Below, one piece after another: positions 25,209 to 32,121 of a stretch of DNA of 45,337 nucleotides. Source of the stretch: Gemmatimonadota bacterium (GTDB taxonomy: Bacteria > Gemmatimonadota > Gemmatimonadetes > Longimicrobiales > RSA9); NCBI GenBank assembly GCA_040905425.1, contig JBBDRO010000105.1, positions 30,733-76,069 on the forward strand, written 5' to 3'. The notes below the pieces were generated by a model. The model was not told the DNA's origin, made no database searches, and saw only the letters and a list, made by a program, of their open reading frames with translations. The number at the start of each line of letters is the position of its first letter. Positions within the stretch are counted from its first letter, which is position 1. The position numbers were made by a program, and so were the translations under genes.

Positions 25209-27422
25209 ATGGCAACCAGGTCTCCCGGCTCCAAGCCTCGCAAGAAGAAGCCGTCCCCGGCCAAGGAGAAACCCTCCTCGGCCAAGGAGAAAGCCTCCTC
25301 GGCCAAGGCAAGGCAAGCCGCCGCGGACGGCAAGGGCCCATCCGAGCTGGACGGCGCGGCGCTGCTGGCCTTCTACCGCACCATGGTGACGGCGCGGCGC
25401 ACCGATGACCAGGAGATGAAGCTCAAGCGCCAGAACAAGATCTTCTTCCAGATCTCGGGCGCGGGGCACGAGGCGGTGCAGGTGGCCGTGGCGGACCATC
25501 TGCGCCCCGGCCGCGATTGGTGCTACCTCTACTACCGGGACCGCGCGCTGGCGCTGGCGCTCGGCGTCTCCCCCTACGAGCAGCTGCTGGAGGCCGTGGG
25601 CGCCGAGGCGGATCCGGCCAGCGGCGGCCGCCAGATGCCCTCCCACTGGGGCCACCGCCCGCTGCGCATCGTGAGCGTGTCCTCCCCCACCGGCACGCAG
25701 TACCTGCAATCGGTGGGCTGCGCCGAGGCCGGCTGGCGGGCGCTCCGCGACCCGGCCATGCAGGAGGCCATCGAGGCCTTCGACGAGGACGAGGTAGTGC
25801 TGTGCACCACGGGCGAGGGCCAGACCTCGCAGGGCGAGTGGTGGGAAGCCATGAACACCGCCTGCAACCTGGCTCTACCGGTTGTGTTCCTGGTAGAGGA
25901 CAACGGCTACGCCATCTCGGTGCCCGTGGAGGTGAACACCGCCGGCGGCAGCATCAGCAAGCTGTTCGGCGCCTTCCCGGGCATGCACCTGGAGGAGTTC
26001 GACGGCGGCGACGTGCGCGCGAGCCACGCCGCCGTGGGCCGCGCCATCGAGCACTGTCGCGCGCGCGAGGGCCCCGCCCTGCTGCACGCCCACGTCACGC
26101 GGCCCTATTCGCACTCCATGTCGGACGACGAGCGCCTCTACCGCACGCCGGCGGAACGCGAGCAGGAGGAGCAGCGGGATCCGCTCACCCGCCTCCGCGA
26201 GTTGCTCATCGCCGAGAAGCATGCCACCGCCGAGGAGCTGGACGCGCTCGAGGCGGAGGTGGCGCAGGAGGTCCAGGAGGCCTCCGACCGCGCCCTGGAC
26301 ATGCCGCAGCCGGCGCCGCACACCGCCATGGACTTCCTCTTCTCACCGGACGTGGACCCTCGCTCCGACGAATTTGCCACGGAGCCCGCCTTCGAGGGCA
26401 CCGAGACCACCATGGTGGACCTCATCAACGCCTGCGTGCGGGATGAGATGGAGCGCGATCCGCGCATCGTGGTGTTCGGCCAGGACGTGGCCGACGCCAG
26501 CCGCGAGGAGGCGCTGGAGGAGGTGAAGGGCAAGGGCGGCGTCTTCAAGTGCACCTGGGGGCTGCAGCGGAAGTTCGGCAGCAACCGCGTGTTCAACTCG
26601 CCGCTCGCCGAAGCCAACATCGTGGGGCGCGCCATCGGCATGGCCACGCGCGGTCTCAAGCCCGTGGTGGAAATCCAGTTCTTCGACTACATCTGGACCG
26701 CCATGATGCAGATCCGCGACGAGCTGGCCACCATGCGCTACCGCTCGGGCGGCAACTGGTCCTGCCCCGTGGTCATCCGCGTGGCCTACGGCGGCTACCT
26801 CAAGGGCGGCGGCATCTATCACTCCCAGACGGGCGAGACGCTCTTCACCCACACGCCGGGACTACGCGTGGTGCTGCCTTCCAACGCGCTGGACGCCAAC
26901 GGCCTGCTGCGCACCGCCATCCGCTCCGAGGACCCCGTGCTCTTCCTGGAGCACAAGCACCTCTACCGCCAGGTCCACAACAAGGGCCGCTATCCGGGCA
27001 GGGACTACATGGTCCCCTTCGGCAAGGCGGCCGTGGTGCGGGAGGGCACGGACGTCACCGTGGTGGCGTGCGGCGCGCTGGTGAAGCGCACCATGGACGC
27101 GGCCAGGCTGCTGGAGCAGGAGGGGGTGAGCGTGGAGGTGCTCGACCTGCGCACGCTGAACCCGCTGGACATGGAGACCGTGGCCGCCTCCGTGAAGAAG
27201 ACCAACAGGGTGCTGGTAGCGTACGAGGACAGCCTGTCGTGGGGCATCGGCGCCGAGATCGCCGCCCGCATTGCCGACGACCTCTTCCCCTGGCTGGACG
27301 CCCCCGTCAGGCGCGTGGCCTCACTGGACACCTGGGTGGCCTACGCGCCGCAGCTGGAGGATGCCATCCTGCCGCAGGTGGAGGACGTGCGGCAGGCACT
27401 GGCGGAGCTGGCGGCGTACTGA
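25209..27422 (+). CDS. Fused alpha/beta E1 component of a 2-oxoacid (likely branched-chain) dehydrogenase
   Basis: GAGHEA, YYRDR, GRQMPSH, TPP motif GEG...[30 protein letters not shown] and DPVLFLEHK. Confidence 0.93.
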
Positions 27423-27429
27423 GGCGGTC
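27402..27429 (+). repeat. Left copy of a 28-bp direct repeat (att-like) covering the E1 3' end and stop
   Basis: GCGGAGCTGGCGGCGTACTGAGGCGGTC; 27/28 identical to 29584-29611. Confidence 0.9.
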
Positions 27430-27620
27430 CCTGCGGGGCACGGAGCTCCTGCGCTAGTCGGTCGTGGGCGGACGCGGCCAGTCGAGGATGTCCCCGGGCC
27501 GGGGACCCACGAGGGGTCTTCACTCCTCGCAACATGCGCCGAAACAGCCATGAATGTGCAATCCCCCGACCCCATGCGTATCGCATTCGACGACTCCAAC
27601 ATCCGCGGGCGATAAAAGGC

Positions 27621-27649
27621 TTGACATCCGCCCCCCCCCCAAGCATGTT
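27621..27649 (+). promoter_or_regulatory. Putative sigma70 promoter with a C10 homopolymer in the spacer
   Basis: TTGACA (27621-27626), 17-bp spacer TCCG-C10-AAG, CATGTT (27644-27649); A-rich GATAAAA just upstream. Confidence 0.65.
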
Positions 27650-27702
27650 CTGGATGTAGCACTTCTGTTCGCCCCGGTTGATGCCTACCACCTGGGGGGG
27701 CC

Positions 27703-28785
27703 GTGCAAACGTCCCGGGCCGAAAGCCTCCTGCTGTTGGCCGTTGCGGCGCTCGACTCCAATCTCGCCGCTGGGCAGTCGGCAGCCACGATCGAGGACTG
27801 CGTCCGATGCGACATGCATGTGGAGCGCATCGCCACGTTCGGGGGCGACGAGCGCGACTACGATATCCGGCACGGCGATCGCAAACTCGTTCGCCTCCAG
27901 GACAGCACTTTCCTGGCTGTCCCGTTCACGGCCGACCACATCCTCCGCCTGGACCATCACGGCAACAAGCTCGCGGTGATCGGACGCCCCGGCAGCGGTC
28001 CGGGGGAGTTCCGGAACATTAATACCCTCACGCTCGGCCCTGGCGATAGTATCTGGGTACACGAACACACCCGCCTCCAGGTGCTTGGTCCAGATGGGGC
28101 CTACGTCAGATCAGTTGAACTAGCCGTTACCCCGTTGACCGTACTTCCGGCCGGTCCGGATGCCTACTTGATGGCCGTTGAGATTCTCACGCCGGAACTG
28201 GCCGGATATCCACTTCATATCCTCGACAAGGCTTCGGGCAAGCTCCGCTCCTTCGCTGATGGGCCGATCGTTCGCGATCCTAATCGTCCCACGTCGGTGT
28301 ACCGCACCATCGAGGTTGCTGGCAAAGTTGCCGTTACCAGCAGTTGGAAACGATACGAGTTGACCTACTGGCAACTTCCCGAGATGACGCGTACGCGGGT
28401 GCTGCGGCGCGACGTCGATTGGTTTCCCCCCGACGACTTCACCCCCTGGCCGGGGCCGGCCTCCGCAATGCCACCGAAGCCCAACTTGTTCGCGCTGGAC
28501 ATCGACAACTGGAGCCACACTTGGGTGGTGGTGAACCGGGCAGCGGATGATTGGCGACCGAATCCGGATGATGATACCCATGGTCGCGCTACGGCCAACG
28601 GACATTACAGGAAAGCCATCATCGAGCGGATCGATCCGCAGGAAGGACGCGTTGTCGGCAGGGCCATCCTTCCGAACACGGAAGTGATCGGCTTCGCCGG
28701 AGATGCCCTTGTGTACAGCTACAGGGAATCGCCAGCGGGTGCGATTCTGGTGGATGTCTGGCAGCTCACTCCGAATCCTTCCTAG
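27703..28785 (+). CDS. Secreted 6-bladed beta-propeller (NHL/TolB-like) protein
   Basis: Signal-like N-terminus, CVRC, IGRPGSGPGEF...LGPGDSIWV blade motif, GAYVRS. Confidence 0.75.
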   Translation: MQTSRAESLLLLAVAALDSNLAAGQSAATIEDCVRCDMHVERIATFGGDERDYDIRHGDRKLVRLQDSTFLAVPFTADHILRLDHHGNKLAVIGRPGSGPGEFRNINTLTLGPGDSIWVHEHTRLQVLGPDGAYVRSVELAVTPLTVLPAGPDAYLMAVEILTPELAGYPLHILDKASGKLRSFADGPIVRDPNRPTSVYRTIEVAGKVAVTSSWKRYELTYWQLPEMTRTRVLRRDVDWFPPDDFTPWPGPASAMPPKPNLFALDIDNWSHTWVVVNRAADDWRPNPDDDTHGRATANGHYRKAIIERIDPQEGRVVGRAILPNTEVIGFAGDALVYSYRESPAGAILVDVWQLTPNPS

Positions 28786-28804
28786 CTCCAGCTTGGAGGC
28801 AGCC

Positions 28805-29401
28805 ATGCGGTACTCGAAGGGAAGCCGGAACGCCGTCGCGGCGGGCATCGTGGTGATCGCCCTCTGCGCGCTCATGTATTCCGCGTGGCGGGTCGCGCCG
28901 GTGCAGGCTGGCGAGCCGTCGATCAGCCCGGACATCCAGACCGTCGTCACGTCGCTCGACGTGCTCCCGCGCCCGCTCCTGGCCGGGTGCTGCAAGTGCT
29001 TCCCCTCGAGCGGGCCCAAGCACTACTTCGGCGGTGGCCCCACGTACTGCGAGAATGGCTGCCCCCTCGAAACTGAGTTCCCTGATTACAACTGCTTCTC
29101 CTGTGAGGGCGGCGAGGATCCCCCGTGCCATGGCGAGACCTACGACGGAACCTGCGGCGACAAGCACGACAACTGCTATCTGCCCACCGAGGAGGAGGAA
29201 GTCGAGGAATTCCTGGCGTTGATTTCCGCAGCATCCGCACCGGAGTTCGACCGGCTCGTGTTGGCGGCCATTCCGCTTCAGAGTGTCAGGATCAACTGGG
29301 CCCGGAGCGCAGTGCAGGTAGATGGTTGCCCTGGGTCTGGTGTGGTTGCGCACTACCCGATCAGTGACGCATTGCTTGCGCAGGCGGCAGCTCTGGACTG
29401 A
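28805..29401 (+). CDS. Secreted Cys-rich hypothetical protein (198 aa)
   Basis: GGAGG RBS; signal peptide ending ...PVQA; 10 Cys in a 63-aa core (28988-29176); acidic linker; C-terminal RSAVQVDGC...VVAHYPI domain. Confidence 0.75.
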   Translation: MRYSKGSRNAVAAGIVVIALCALMYSAWRVAPVQAGEPSISPDIQTVVTSLDVLPRPLLAGCCKCFPSSGPKHYFGGGPTYCENGCPLETEFPDYNCFSCEGGEDPPCHGETYDGTCGDKHDNCYLPTEEEEVEEFLALISAASAPEFDRLVLAAIPLQSVRINWARSAVQVDGCPGSGVVAHYPISDALLAQAAALD

Positions 29402-29508
29402 TCGGTGATCGTCCCGGCCGGCCGCCATACAGGTCGAGGCACGTAGCGGACCGGGGTCAATCTGCGGCGCCAAGGCCTGCCATTTCGTGATGGGGCGGCG
29501 CTCCGATC

Positions 29509-29541
29509 GGCGGCGGCGGTGATCTTACGCCGCCGCCATTT
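29509..29541 (+). terminator. Candidate terminator of the islet transcript
   Basis: GGCGGCGGCG/CGCCGCCGCC 10-bp stem followed by ATTT. Confidence 0.5.
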
Positions 29542-29583
29542 GGGATGGCGTCCACGCCGTCATTCATGGCGCTGGTCCGCAGT

Positions 29584-29611
29584 GCGGAGCTGGCAGCGTA
29601 CTGAGGCGGTC
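29584..29611 (+). repeat. Right copy of the 28-bp direct repeat (att-like)
   Basis: GCGGAGCTGGCAGCGTACTGAGGCGGTC; still reads AELAAY*, with one synonymous difference. Confidence 0.9.
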
Positions 29612-29728
29612 GGCCTCGCTGTCGAGCCGTTTCATGTAAGCGACGTCCCCGCGCGGCTTCCACTCGCCAGGCAACCTGCGCCGCCACGTCGGTGTCCCAC
29701 GGGGTAAGCACCCTGAACCGAGGCTGCC

Positions 29729-30763
29729 ATGCCCGCCTTCCCGTTGCGGATCCGCTCCGTCCGTTCCCCGTTCCTGATGGTCGCATTCCTCCTGGCCTGT
29801 GCGGGGGAGGACGGTGCCGCCCCCGAACTGGTCTGGCCGGACTGGTCCGCACCCGCGACGGTGATCGGCGCGCTGGACACGCCCGCGGAGGAGGTGTTCG
29901 GCCGCATCGCGGACGTGGCCGTGGGCCCGGAGCAGAACATCCACGTGCTGGACGACCAGGCATCGGAGGTACGGGTGTTCACGCCCGGGGGGGCGCACGT
30001 GGCCAGCTTCGGCGGCCCCGGGGAGGGCCCGCGCGAACTGCAGCGCCCGGTGTCGCTCACGGTGGACGGCACGGGCCGCTCCCTGGTGGGGCTGGCGGAC
30101 CGGCGAGTCAAGGCGTTCTCCATCAGCGAACCCGACGCGCCGCCCGCCATGGTGGAGCTGAGTGTACTCGGCCGCACCCTGTGTGTGGTCGGAGAGCGGA
30201 TCGTGGCGCAGGGCTCCACGCCGGAGGATACGACCGTGGTCTGGGTCCACGACCTCCAGGGGAATCTGCAGGCGTCCTACGGCGCCGGTCCGCCGGCGCC
30301 GAACGCCATGATCGGCTACGCTATGCGGCAGGGACGGGCCGCCTGCGTACCGCCCGACCTGACGGTCTACAAAGTCGGCAACGACTCCACGCTCACGGCG
30401 TACACGCTGGACGGCCAGCGCCTGTGGTCGGCGGTGATCCCCGCATGGCTAGGCACCATCGTCGAGGCCACGGAGAACGGCTACAGCGTACGCGCGCCGG
30501 AGGATGGATTCACCGTCCTGGAGTCTCTGGTGCCGCTCTCGGCCAGGGCGCTCCTGGCCCAGGTCTCCTTTCGTACTACCGCCTCCCGGGAGGCGGGCGA
30601 ACGCTGGGAGGAGCTCAGGAGCTATCTCATCGATCCGCGGGACGGCAGCGTGCAGCCGCTGGCGGAGGCGCTCCCCCATCTGGTGGGTGCGTCACTGGAC
30701 TGGCTCATCGGCCTGGAGGTGGATCCCTTCCCCCGACTGCTCGTGTGGGAGCGGCCGCGCTAG
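29729..30763 (+). CDS. 6-bladed beta-propeller lipoprotein
   Basis: Lipobox LLAC; FGRIADVAV...IHVLD...VRVF...FGGPGEGPREL..P NHL-like motif. Confidence 0.8.
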   Translation: MPAFPLRIRSVRSPFLMVAFLLACAGEDGAAPELVWPDWSAPATVIGALDTPAEEVFGRIADVAVGPEQNIHVLDDQASEVRVFTPGGAHVASFGGPGEGPRELQRPVSLTVDGTGRSLVGLADRRVKAFSISEPDAPPAMVELSVLGRTLCVVGERIVAQGSTPEDTTVVWVHDLQGNLQASYGAGPPAPNAMIGYAMRQGRAACVPPDLTVYKVGNDSTLTAYTLDGQRLWSAVIPAWLGTIVEATENGYSVRAPEDGFTVLESLVPLSARALLAQVSFRTTASREAGERWEELRSYLIDPRDGSVQPLAEALPHLVGASLDWLIGLEVDPFPRLLVWERPR

Positions 30764-32121
30764 CGCCGTGCCGCCTCGCCGACCAGCGCCAGCACCCGGT
30801 CCAGTTCCGCCTCCAGCACCCACACGTGCGGTGAGAGGCGCATCCAGCCACGCTCACCCTCGGAGATGACCCGCGTGCGGACGTTGGCCGTGCCGAGCGT
30901 CCGCTGCAACTCCAGGCCCTCCAGGCCGTCCACGGTGAAGGAGACCATGCCCGCGCCGAGTTCATCGTCGAGCGGCGAGACGATGCGCACGCCGGGAAGT
31001 TCGGCCAGCCCCTCCAACAGGCGGCGCCGCAGCTCGCGGATGCGGGCATGCACGCGCTCGAAACCGATGGTTTCCAGAAAGCTGAGCGCCGCCACGAGTC
31101 CCGCCATGCGGGATTCGTCGAAGGTGCCCAGGTGGTTGAAGCGGTGGGCGCCCAGAGAGAGATCGTCCCAGCCGCCGGAGGCCAGCGTGGGCCAGAGCTC
31201 CGTGCGCCAGCGCTCGGCCATCCACAGGAAGCCGGTGCCCTGGGGCGCCAGCAGCCACTTGTGGGGCGAGGAGGCATAGAAGTCGGCGCCGGTGGCGCTG
31301 ATGTCCACGGGCATGAGCCCCGGGGGATGGGCGCCGTCCACCACGAAGATGATGCCCCGCTCCCGGCAGAGGCCGCCCAGTTCCCGGATCGGCAGCACAG
31401 CGCCGTTGGTGAAGGTCACGTGGGACACCGAGAGGACGCGCGTGGCCGGCGTAAGCGCTCCCCTGATGGCGTCCAGCAGTTGCCCAGTGTCCGTGGGCGG
31501 CACGGGCAGCGTGGCAAAGCGGAGCGTGGCGCCGTGGCGCGCCGCCACCAGCTCCCAGGGACAGCGCCCGCCGATGTGTTCGTGGTCCGTGGTGACGATC
31601 TCGTCGCCGGGGCCGAGCTCCAGCCCGTTGGCCACGAAGCTCATCCCCTCGGTGGTGTTCCTGGGGAAGACGAAGCCGGCAGGATCGGCGCCGAGCAGCG
31701 CGCCGAGCGGCGCCTTGAGGGCATCCCAATCCACGCCAGGCGGATGGGTCTCCGCTACGCGGCGGGTGTGCTCGAGGAGCGCGTCCACCACCACCCGTGG
31801 CTGTGCGCCGAGCGTGCCCACGTTCAGATAGATGCGGTCGGGCGCCAGGTGGAAAGCAGTGCGCACGGTCTCCCAGAGGCCCTCGCGTGCCCCGCCGTGC
31901 GCGCTGAGGCTGCTGGCCGCGCCATCGCTTCCGTGCGCGCCGTCGCTTCCGTGCGCGCCGAGGCTGGCGTTCGCGCCGTCGCTTCCAGCCGTAGTTTCCT
32001 TGCCGGAAGCGGTGCCGAGCGCCGTCCGGAGGGCGGTCAACTCCCGCGGCCAGGCCAGCCCGGTGGCCGCACCGGCGGCGAGCGTGGCCAGGAAGCCGCG
32101 GCGCGGTAGCGCGTTGCTCAT
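30760..32121 (-). CDS. Class-V PLP-dependent enzyme (isopenicillin-N epimerase/cysteine desulfurase-like) with a Tat signal
   Basis: PRRGFL twin-arginine; YLNVGTLG, RNTTEG, DHEH, DGAH and SPHKW (PLP Lys) motifs. Confidence 0.88.
   Translation of the reverse strand: MSNALPRRGFLATLAAGAATGLAWPRELTALRTALGTASGKETTAGSDGANASLGAHGSDGAHGSDGAASSLSAHGGAREGLWETVRTAFHLAPDRIYLNVGTLGAQPRVVVDALLEHTRRVAETHPPGVDWDALKAPLGALLGADPAGFVFPRNTTEGMSFVANGLELGPGDEIVTTDHEHIGGRCPWELVAARHGATLRFATLPVPPTDTGQLLDAIRGALTPATRVLSVSHVTFTNGAVLPIRELGGLCRERGIIFVVDGAHPPGLMPVDISATGADFYASSPHKWLLAPQGTGFLWMAERWRTELWPTLASGGWDDLSLGAHRFNHLGTFDESRMAGLVAALSFLETIGFERVHARIRELRRRLLEGLAELPGVRIVSPLDDELGAGMVSFTVDGLEGLELQRTLGTANVRTRVISEGERGWMRLSPHVWVLEAELDRVLALVGEAARR
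31919..31986. repeat. Imperfect 18-bp coding repeats (GAHGSD) in the post-signal linker
   Basis: GCGCCRTCGCTTCCGTGC x2 plus a partial third copy. Confidence 0.75.

Follow-up and report, generated by a model that had tools for sequence, protein, structure and literature searches.

Small, very cysteine-rich subunits encoded beside periplasmic seven-bladed propellers are known from methylamine dehydrogenase (MauB/MauA) and quinohaemoprotein amine dehydrogenase (QHNDH; beta and gamma subunits). In NHLRC2 of animals and SOQ1 of plants, a thioredoxin-like domain is fused to an NHL propeller, and extracytoplasmic function (ECF) sigma modules of the CnrYXH type include a small membrane-anchored periplasmic metal sensor. 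The propeller families of DUF5128 (PF17170), 3s9j and 4raa have neither an assigned function nor a described Cys/His-rich partner. Here we describe a pair of genes from an uncultured bacterium of the Gemmatimonadota, a phylum that is abundant in soils and sediments and has few cultured members; one encodes a beta-propeller and the other a small Cys/His-rich protein of 198 residues. The pair lies in a stretch of 45,337 nucleotides (positions 30,733 to 76,069 of contig JBBDRO010000105.1, assembly GCA_040905425.1, a member of the Longimicrobiales lineage RSA9), hereafter called the window; the assembly is referred to as the source genome.

The window propeller has its fold and repeat type in common with DUF5128, 3s9j and 4raa, from which the clade of small-protein partners differs by an additional N-terminal CxxC motif and a loop at residues 163-165. 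Its likeness to MauB/MauA and QHNDH lies in the placement of a propeller gene beside a gene for a small Cys-rich subunit; here, however, the propeller is six-bladed, sequence relation, conserved Trp and maturation genes are lacking, and there are many copies. NHLRC2 and SOQ1, compared by their known architecture, are extracytoplasmic or lumenal proteins that likewise join a CxxC motif to a six-bladed NHL propeller, whereas in the present pair the CxxC belongs to a short N-terminal segment that has no thioredoxin fold, and the thiol-rich partner is a separate protein. CnrYXH-type modules similarly place an ECF-type sigma gene ahead of genes whose small, exported or anchored products are rich in metal-ligand residues, but they have no counterpart of the propeller; conversely, no CnrX, CnrY or anti-sigma domain was detected here, and a sigma gene accompanies only half of the source-genome copies. 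In the literature on Gemmatimonadota, DUF5128/DUF4221, ECF sigma factors and Longimicrobiales/Palauibacter, as far as it lies outside subscription journals, no description of the propeller/small-protein pair was found, and the terms propeller, NHL, cysteine and sigma factor do not occur in PMC11316326. As Pfam, NCBIfam, the PDB and the literature searched contain neither the small-protein family with its predicted docking domain nor the pairing, we classify the module as being of a kind not described before; the propeller fold itself is already known.

Pairing of the two genes in the source genome and across the phylum

In the window, the stop codon of the propeller gene is separated by 19 bp from the ATG of the small gene at 28805, which is preceded by a GGAGG sequence (Table 1). 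The open reading frame (ORF) calls thus confirm the two-gene unit that a first-pass annotation, made from the sequence alone, had proposed. Contigs from three public sequencing runs of one study cover the region with zero differences. Because one of these contigs spans 27892-30180 and its run is not marked as a possible source of the assembly, the gene arrangement is no assembly artefact.

A profile of the small-protein family identified ten segments of the source genome at E <= 0.01 (hmmsearch), eight of them at 1.2e-7 or below and the others at 6.6e-5 and 0.0048. Eight of the ten small genes stand directly downstream of a same-strand propeller gene, and the remaining two (contigs C58 and C74) stand behind a sigma gene, with a propeller gene further along the same operon. 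On C58, the small gene is followed by a gene for a 473-residue protein with a CarboxypepD_reg domain (L061:4899-6317, minus strand), and the propeller encoded further downstream in this operon belongs to the partner clade described below. Among 29 loci from other genomes, 27 had an adjacent same-strand propeller gene, the other two being situated at contig starts. Gene order varied, with 14 propeller-first and 15 small-gene-first arrangements. Each of 20 wider loci, taken from 15 genomes, contained at least one small gene adjoining a propeller gene, and at L083 (genome G039, of a sister family) three small-gene/propeller pairs stand in tandem. Pairing therefore exceeds chance, as it recurs in the source genome and in other genomes, and the expectation of the first-pass annotation that homologues would adjoin propeller genes was borne out. 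Distances among 25 small proteins and 25 propellers were correlated (Mantel r = 0.65), a value reached by none of 5000 permutations. This shows the pairs to have been inherited and duplicated as units. Joint action of the two proteins is very probable.

The family of the small protein is real, rare and without annotation. The protein has no Pfam or NCBIfam match, and scans of all 57 family members against both databases gave only scattered single chance matches. The family profile matched no PDB sequence at E <= 1, and the ESM Atlas held no usable match for the protein. A match to a known enzyme, which would have spoken against the first-pass annotation, was thus not found in Pfam, NCBIfam or the PDB. 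A word-indexed search of 5.8 billion proteins recovered the query alone when the single sequence was used, and 19 proteins with the 57-sequence profile; "hypothetical protein" was the only name among them, and one came from Candidatus Palauibacter. Searched exhaustively with phmmer, 1.84 billion cluster representatives yielded 25 proteins at E <= 0.001 (query included), 107-215 residues long and 33-41% identical to the query. Nothing was found when a genome-contig collection was searched for related loci with the single protein, and no longer, fused form occurred among 7996 scored candidates, which is weak evidence. The profile matched 53 of 401 sampled genomes of the phylum, the source genome counted, with up to nine matches per genome; in the bacterial family to which the window belongs, one of seven sampled genomes had a match. 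Copy numbers of 4-9 were found in several complete genomes from a sister family (G039, G177 and G394).

Architecture of the small protein and its predicted docking on the propeller

The division of the small protein into a hydrophobic N-terminus, a pro-like segment, a 63-residue core, an EEEEVEE linker and a compact C-terminal domain, given in the first-pass annotation, is exact according to the translation. The N-terminus is basic, and about ten residues precede a hydrophobic helix that spans residues 8-29 in the AlphaFold 2 (AF2) model. The core extends from C62 to C124 and holds ten Cys together with H73, H109 and H121. The acidic run occupies residues 129-135, and the C-terminal part carries RSAVQVDGC...VVAHYPI, with R167, Q171, C175 and H183 lying within the domain. 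The mean predicted local distance difference test score (pLDDT) of the model was 66, with values of 73-89 for residues 160-198, below 50 for residues 45-61 and mostly below 70 for the core. Searches with this moderate model gave no PDB match at E <= 0.001 (Foldseek) and a best Z of 3.5 against 48,161 chains (VIA-align); the fold may be a known one.

Two identities were ruled out on the basis of the translation and the neighbouring genes, in agreement with what had been noted at first reading. The translation contains no CxxCH haem-binding motif, which excludes a c-type cytochrome; its CxxC motifs are followed by F and E, and the conserved His sits 7-10 residues past the first of them. A precursor of a ribosomally synthesised and post-translationally modified peptide (RiPP) is excluded because the protein has 198 residues with a folded, conserved C-terminal domain and no modifying enzyme nearby. 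Pfam scans of the window neighbours and of 44 ORFs around the other source-genome modules detected no RiPP enzymes.

Conservation was assessed in an alignment of 57 sequences, comprising the phmmer matches, paralogues and homologues from other genomes. C124 and C175 are invariant, C62, H73, H109, C117, H121, R167 and Q171 occur in at least 90% of the sequences, C65 in 51 and H183 in 39. The conserved core skeleton thus consists of C62, C65, H73, H109, C117, H121 and C124. Over 1596 pairs, identity at aligned positions was 28.5% in the core versus 26.6% in the C-terminal part; core length ranged from 26 to 116 residues, and the indel fraction was 0.40 in the core versus 0.11 in the C-terminal part. 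The proposal of a variable module on a conserved carrier consequently stands in part. The C-terminal domain is conserved and, by its predicted contacts (see below), may be called a carrier in the sense of a docking domain, and loop length and extra Cys pairs do vary; the Cys/His skeleton, however, is conserved and not freely variable. At L080 (genome G380, likewise of a sister family), two tandem small genes precede one propeller gene, and their products are 57% identical in the core and 71% in the C-terminal part.

The minimal set of the small proteins comprises five Cys (C62, C65, C117, C124 and C175) and three or four His. The Cys count is odd (5, 7, 9 or 11) in 51 of the 57 proteins, with the extra Cys paired within variable loops, so that one thiol would be left free. 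From this odd conserved Cys set, the conserved His and a partner whose only Cys form a CxxC motif, we infer that metal ligation and/or thiol chemistry is favoured over a purely structural disulfide knot.

The AF2 model of the propeller reached a pLDDT of 85.9 and a predicted template modelling (TM) score of 0.85. Its best Foldseek matches were two uncharacterised Bacteroides proteins from structural genomics, 3s9j (DUF4221; E 5e-11, TM 0.63) and 4raa (BF0058; 6e-10), followed by NHL domains. A profile built from 30 partner propellers matched the NHL domains of Thin, TRIM71, TRIM2/3 and Brat (1.5e-43 to 3e-22), as well as 4raa (1.2e-9) and the lyase domain of peptidylglycine alpha-amidating monooxygenase (1.1e-8). 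On the evidence of the model, the protein is a six-bladed beta-propeller of the NHL/DUF5128 type, probably exported. The window propeller itself scored 13.2 bits against PF17170 DUF5128, below the gathering cut-off of 22.9, and 18 of the 30 partner propellers matched this family at E <= 0.01 (best 1.1e-10). Judging from these scores, the partner clade is related to DUF5128, and the window copy appears too diverged for a Pfam assignment. Conserved polar residues are few among the 30 partner propellers and include a single His. NHL enzymes of the peptidyl-alpha-hydroxyglycine alpha-amidating lyase type are defined by a catalytic zinc site of three His. This identity was ruled out, as the match to 3fvz (1.1e-8) covers one repeat and only H172 is conserved at 70% or more. 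Both cysteines of the CxxC motif, which sits in a short N-terminal segment just ahead of the first strand, are present in 28 of the 30 partner propellers, and in 24 of the 30 the mature protein has no other Cys.

Propellers of this family are greatly expanded in the source genome (4.1 Mb), where a single-sequence search gave 45 matches and iteration 117 stop-to-stop segments. Many are encoded in tandem runs (C59, 5.5-14 kb; C32, about 63-72 kb), and L086 of another genome has five or more propellers in a row. In a tree of 104 source-genome paralogues, one clade of 22 propellers splits off (Shimodaira-Hasegawa-like approximate likelihood ratio test, 100), and it holds eight of the nine that were scored as adjoining a family small gene. 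The CxxC motif is specific to this clade and, like H172 and the loop at 163-165, mostly missing from the other 82 paralogues; 13 of the 22 clade members have the loop, and 76 of the 82 show a gap in its place. The GxGPGE motif is near-universal among the 104 paralogues and is not clade-specific.

The complex was predicted from the mature propeller (residues 27-360, 30-row alignment) and residues 55-198 of the small protein (57-row alignment). The interaction prediction score from aligned errors (ipSAE) was 0.80, 0.83 and 0.80, versus 0.06 for the best of three controls. Calibration placed 116 of 157 solved complexes, but only 2 of 215 mismatched pairs, at or above the mark applied to this score; these counts are only rough here, since the alignments were built by ourselves. 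In the complex runs, partner pLDDT was at least 58, and at least 33% of the contacts agreed between runs. In the predicted interface, residues 162-168 and 188-195 of the propeller touch three segments of the small protein (137-141, 164-172 and 178-185), which include R167, Q171 and H183. The best contact pairs, between propeller residues 190-193 and small-protein residues 180-185, resemble strand pairing. A memorised solved structure is an unlikely source of the score, because the small-family profile has no PDB match at E <= 1. The prediction supports binding of the small protein to the propeller through its conserved C-terminal domain and agrees with the earlier suggestion that the propeller is its cognate partner.

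Sigma genes, flanking repeats and genomic setting

At five of the ten source-genome copies, the unit is immediately preceded by a Sigma70_r4_2 gene, in some cases with r2 or ECF matches as well; three of these show the order sigma-propeller-small and two the order sigma-small. The source genome has 33 Sigma70_r4_2 matches in all, and 11 of them are followed by a same-strand propeller gene within 2.5 kb downstream. At the foreign loci, a sigma gene was found upstream on the same strand in 3 of 20 cases and in divergent orientation in one of 20. Neither the small proteins nor the propellers gave Pfam matches of the zf-HC2 or RskA type. A class I anti-sigma factor, in which a cytoplasmic anti-sigma domain stands before a transmembrane helix, was ruled out, given that the small protein has only about ten residues ahead of its hydrophobic helix; in a few propellers, 20-75 residues come before the hydrophobic segment, with uncertain starts.

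Other small genes occur near source-genome propellers. Two sigma-linked propeller operons encode unrelated small secreted proteins between the sigma gene and the propeller or propellers. P0044 (L061:12208-12594, minus strand) is a Cys-rich ORF of 129 residues, and P0045 (L064:11146-11508, minus strand) has 121 residues, among them two Cys and several His. A secreted mini-protein of 80 residues, with a core-like GDCDVHDN sequence and no docking domain, is encoded ahead of the propeller at C63:14329. One module, on contig C100, has a DsbA-like Thioredoxin_4 gene directly upstream (L059:7660-8325, minus strand), and in the propeller of this module C-x4-C replaces CxxC.

Related metagenome-assembled genomes (MAGs) share the conserved gene order DHH, PHP, coaE, E1, convergent class-V aminotransferase and hydrolase, and a Pfam scan identified the corresponding genes (DHH, PHP, CoaE, fused E1 dehydrogenase, class-V aminotransferase, hydrolase) on the flanks of the unit in the window. 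The E1 gene (25209-27422) encodes a 737-residue fusion of the E1 alpha and beta parts of a 2-oxoacid dehydrogenase (E1_dh, Transket_pyr and Transketolase_C); its nearest relatives, in Longimicrobiales and other Gemmatimonadota MAGs, are 75-79% identical, and this gene and its neighbours are conserved across Gemmatimonadota and look ordinary. From the E1 stop to the end of the aminotransferase gene, the distance is 45-162 bp in five relatives (L087, L088, L090, L092 and L133), which are the syntenic Longimicrobiales/Gemmatimonadota MAGs with both flanks close together, versus 3.3 kb in the window. Relative to these five, the window copy thus lies within a 3.3-kb insertion (27423-30759), which also contains the second propeller paralogue, situated outside the direct repeats described below. 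No propeller or small-family gene was present at the loci of the 16 relatives examined. The site may be an insertion hotspot, as L093 and L094 carry different, unrelated inserts there (about 1.6 and 3.0 kb). The G+C content falls to 0.62 in 28001-29000, most of the remaining 1-kb bins in the window having about 0.70-0.78, and G+C at third codon positions is 0.51-0.78 in the small genes versus a source-genome median of 0.85 (long ORFs).

A direct repeat of 28 bp flanks the two genes. Similarity ends at the repeat borders, only these two copies exist in the source genome, and the 2182 bp between the repeat starts contain the two genes only, without an integrase-like or recombinase ORF. An integrative element or integron cassette would be marked by flanking direct repeats together with a recombinase or attC sites; the 2.2-kb insert has the repeat, and its site is empty in the five syntenic relatives. 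Exact flanking repeats of at least 16 bp were found at four of the ten source-genome modules, versus 39 of 1500 random windows of like size. These four repeats measure 28 bp, 55 bp at 93% identity, 27 bp (palindromic) and 70 bp at 87% identity with a terminator-like hairpin, so that two of them extend to 55-70 bp at 87-93% identity; the palindromic repeat, at the C59 module, may instead be a regulatory site. The sequencing-run contigs included no empty-site variant; the sole joint that skips the cassette (27158 to 30133), supported on one side by no more than 21 letters, was discarded. No RNA run was among the sequencing runs listed for the region. A promoter and terminator consensus scan of 27300-30900 yielded nothing informative.

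Table 1. Features of the gene pair and its surroundings (window positions unless a contig is named)
Feature	Position	Strand	Basis or remarks
Propeller gene	27703..28785	+	ORF, 360 aa; stop codon 28783-28785
CxxC motif of the propeller (C33-V-R-C36)	27799..27810	+	Only two cysteines of the mature propeller
Propeller residues 162-195	28186..28287	+	Predicted contacts 162-168 and 188-195; near-invariant G168, H172, S183
GGAGG ribosome-binding site of the small gene	28795-28799	+	5 nt before the ATG; sequence reading
Small Cys/His protein gene	28805-29401	+	198 aa from ATG 28805; stop included
Small protein, residues 1-61: putative signal peptide or anchor (about 1-35) and pro-like segment (36-61)	28805..28987	+	Translation, AF2 model
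Small protein, residues 62-124: Cys/His core	28988..29176	+	10 Cys, 3 His; conservation counts over 57 sequences
Small protein, residues 125-135: acidic linker YLPTEEEEVEE	29177..29209	+	Translation
Small protein, residues 136-198 and stop: C-terminal alpha/beta domain	29210..29401	+	Conservation, AF2 model, predicted contacts
Direct repeat, left copy, 28 bp	27402..27429	+	Covers the last codons and stop of the E1 gene (25209-27422)
Direct repeat, right copy, 28 bp	29584..29611	+	27/28 identical to the left copy; spacing 2182
Second propeller paralogue	29729..30763	+	344 aa, lipoprotein-like N-terminus, no CxxC; family match 1.1e-29
Repeat-flanked modules of the source genome (left / right repeat)	C9 (721 / 3848), C59 (6978 / 9420), C100 (161066 / 164033), C105 (58134 / 60316)		Source genome

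Candidate functions and significance

The function that we tentatively favour, at somewhat less than an even chance, is that of a stable, cognate envelope complex. It would serve binding or sensing by means of a Cys/His head, held by metal or disulfides and fixed to the propeller through the C-terminal domain, often in connection with an ECF-type sigma factor. The C-terminal domain (about residues 136-198) would dock on the blade 3 loop region of its cognate propeller (162-195), a region characteristic of the clade paired with small proteins, and the N-terminal Cys/His region would be held on the propeller as a compact head, stabilised by metal ions and/or disulfides. The propeller's lone CxxC would supply a redox-active or metal-binding site, and each diverged copy would bind or sense an extracytoplasmic cue of its own. 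An ECF-type sigma factor encoded just upstream would often drive expression of the unit or receive its report, and the units would multiply and move as small cassettes. The analysis shows the conserved pairing, co-divergence, clade specificity, conserved Cys/His positions, sigma linkage, insertion and a predicted interface that passes controls; export, a role in sensing or binding and the chemistry of metal or disulfides are parts of this picture that we infer.

Several observations weigh against such a sensing complex. Co-divergence among kin also follows from co-inheritance alone, so that physical co-evolution is not proven by the Mantel correlation, and 14 of the 22 clade propellers have no directly adjacent family small gene. 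The sigma link is partial (five of ten source-genome copies, 3 of 20 loci elsewhere), no sigma gene lies near the window copy, and with no classical anti-sigma domain visible the signalling route is not evident. The model of the small protein is moderate, most of all in the core, and the calibration of the complex score is rough. The confident interface omits the propeller CxxC, C175 and all core residues save residue 123, which makes a joint thiol/metal site a conjecture. Cys-ligated metal sites are, moreover, unusual in the oxidising periplasm.

The same pairing could serve maturation, with the CxxC propeller acting as an oxidoreductase, foldase or chaperone for a small protein that is folded and then released as a signal, adhesin or antimicrobial peptide. 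The predicted binding fits this equally well, the CxxC is the propeller's only Cys pair, and the small proteins are Cys-rich with extra pairs in variable loops; the DsbA-like gene ahead of one source-genome module and the unrelated small secreted proteins in other sigma-linked propeller operons (P0044, Cys-rich; P0045, with two Cys) point the same way. We nevertheless regard maturation as unlikely, since the CxxC lies outside a thioredoxin fold on a propeller that conserves one His and few polar residues, the small protein is best conserved in a folded docking domain and not in a leader, and with an odd number of Cys one thiol would stay free even when oxidation is complete. Scans of the window and of the source-genome modules also showed no exporter or protease beside the pair. 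Lower still in probability is a toxin or bacteriocin with its immunity protein, the small protein being a secreted antagonist that the propeller neutralises in the producer. Many diverged copies per genome, tandem arrays, the low third-position G+C of the small genes, cassette-like insertions and tight one-to-one pairing with predicted binding would all suit an antagonist, but the architecture is the reverse of that of polymorphic toxins, as the conserved, constant-length, partner-binding part is C-terminal, and the Cys/His skeleton is conserved across the phylum and not swapped. The scanned neighbourhoods contained no toxin domain, secretion system, lysis gene or exporter, and no toxin match was found in Pfam, NCBIfam or the PDB (PADLOC and PHROGs were not scanned). 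With the conserved part C-terminal, gene orders of 14 versus 15 and no toxin family matched, membership in the polymorphic toxin and immunity class was rejected, and nothing was found in support of the polymorphic antagonism that the first-pass annotation had considered.

A two-subunit periplasmic redox enzyme, in which the propeller is a heavy subunit carrying a cross-linked, cofactor-bearing Cys-rich small subunit, appears about as improbable as a toxin. It would explain the shared plan of the amine dehydrogenases mentioned above, namely a propeller and a small Cys-rich subunit encoded side by side and here predicted to bind, and a cofactor based on metal or on cross-links could be formed from the conserved His and Cys. 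Against this, the small-family profile lacks a PDB sequence match at E <= 1, Trp is absent from the invariant and near-invariant columns of the small protein, and MauG, MauD, MauE and radical-SAM genes were not seen beside the source-genome modules or in the window; membership in the MauA or QHNDH gamma families was rejected on these grounds. The propeller is, in addition, of the six-bladed NHL type with few conserved polar residues, and a catabolic enzyme would not usually be present in ten diverged copies per genome. The envelope complex with a Cys/His head remains the reading that we prefer, some probability being left for a function not considered here. A far-reaching extension of it would see the units as small mobile sensor cassettes across the phylum, with each diverged pair held together or switched by an interprotein thiol/metal site formed zinc-clasp-like by the CxxC and free Cys/His, transmission of a distinct cue to a dedicated ECF-type sigma factor without a classical anti-sigma factor, and spread of new specificities by insertion with unusually long target duplications of about 27-70 bp; we hold this extension to be quite doubtful.

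The source genome devotes about 100 genes to one propeller family. This expansion, the CxxC of the propeller, the sigma linkage and the cassette-like insertion with its direct repeats go beyond the first-pass annotation. Within this expansion, the small-protein family, its cognate propeller clade with a predicted interface, and the links to sigma genes and cassettes define a testable unit. If the reading as a redox or metal switch or as a receptor set is true, the pair would represent a new kind of envelope module, and it would offer the first functional handle on propellers of the DUF5128/DUF4221 type, which are common in Bacteroidota too.

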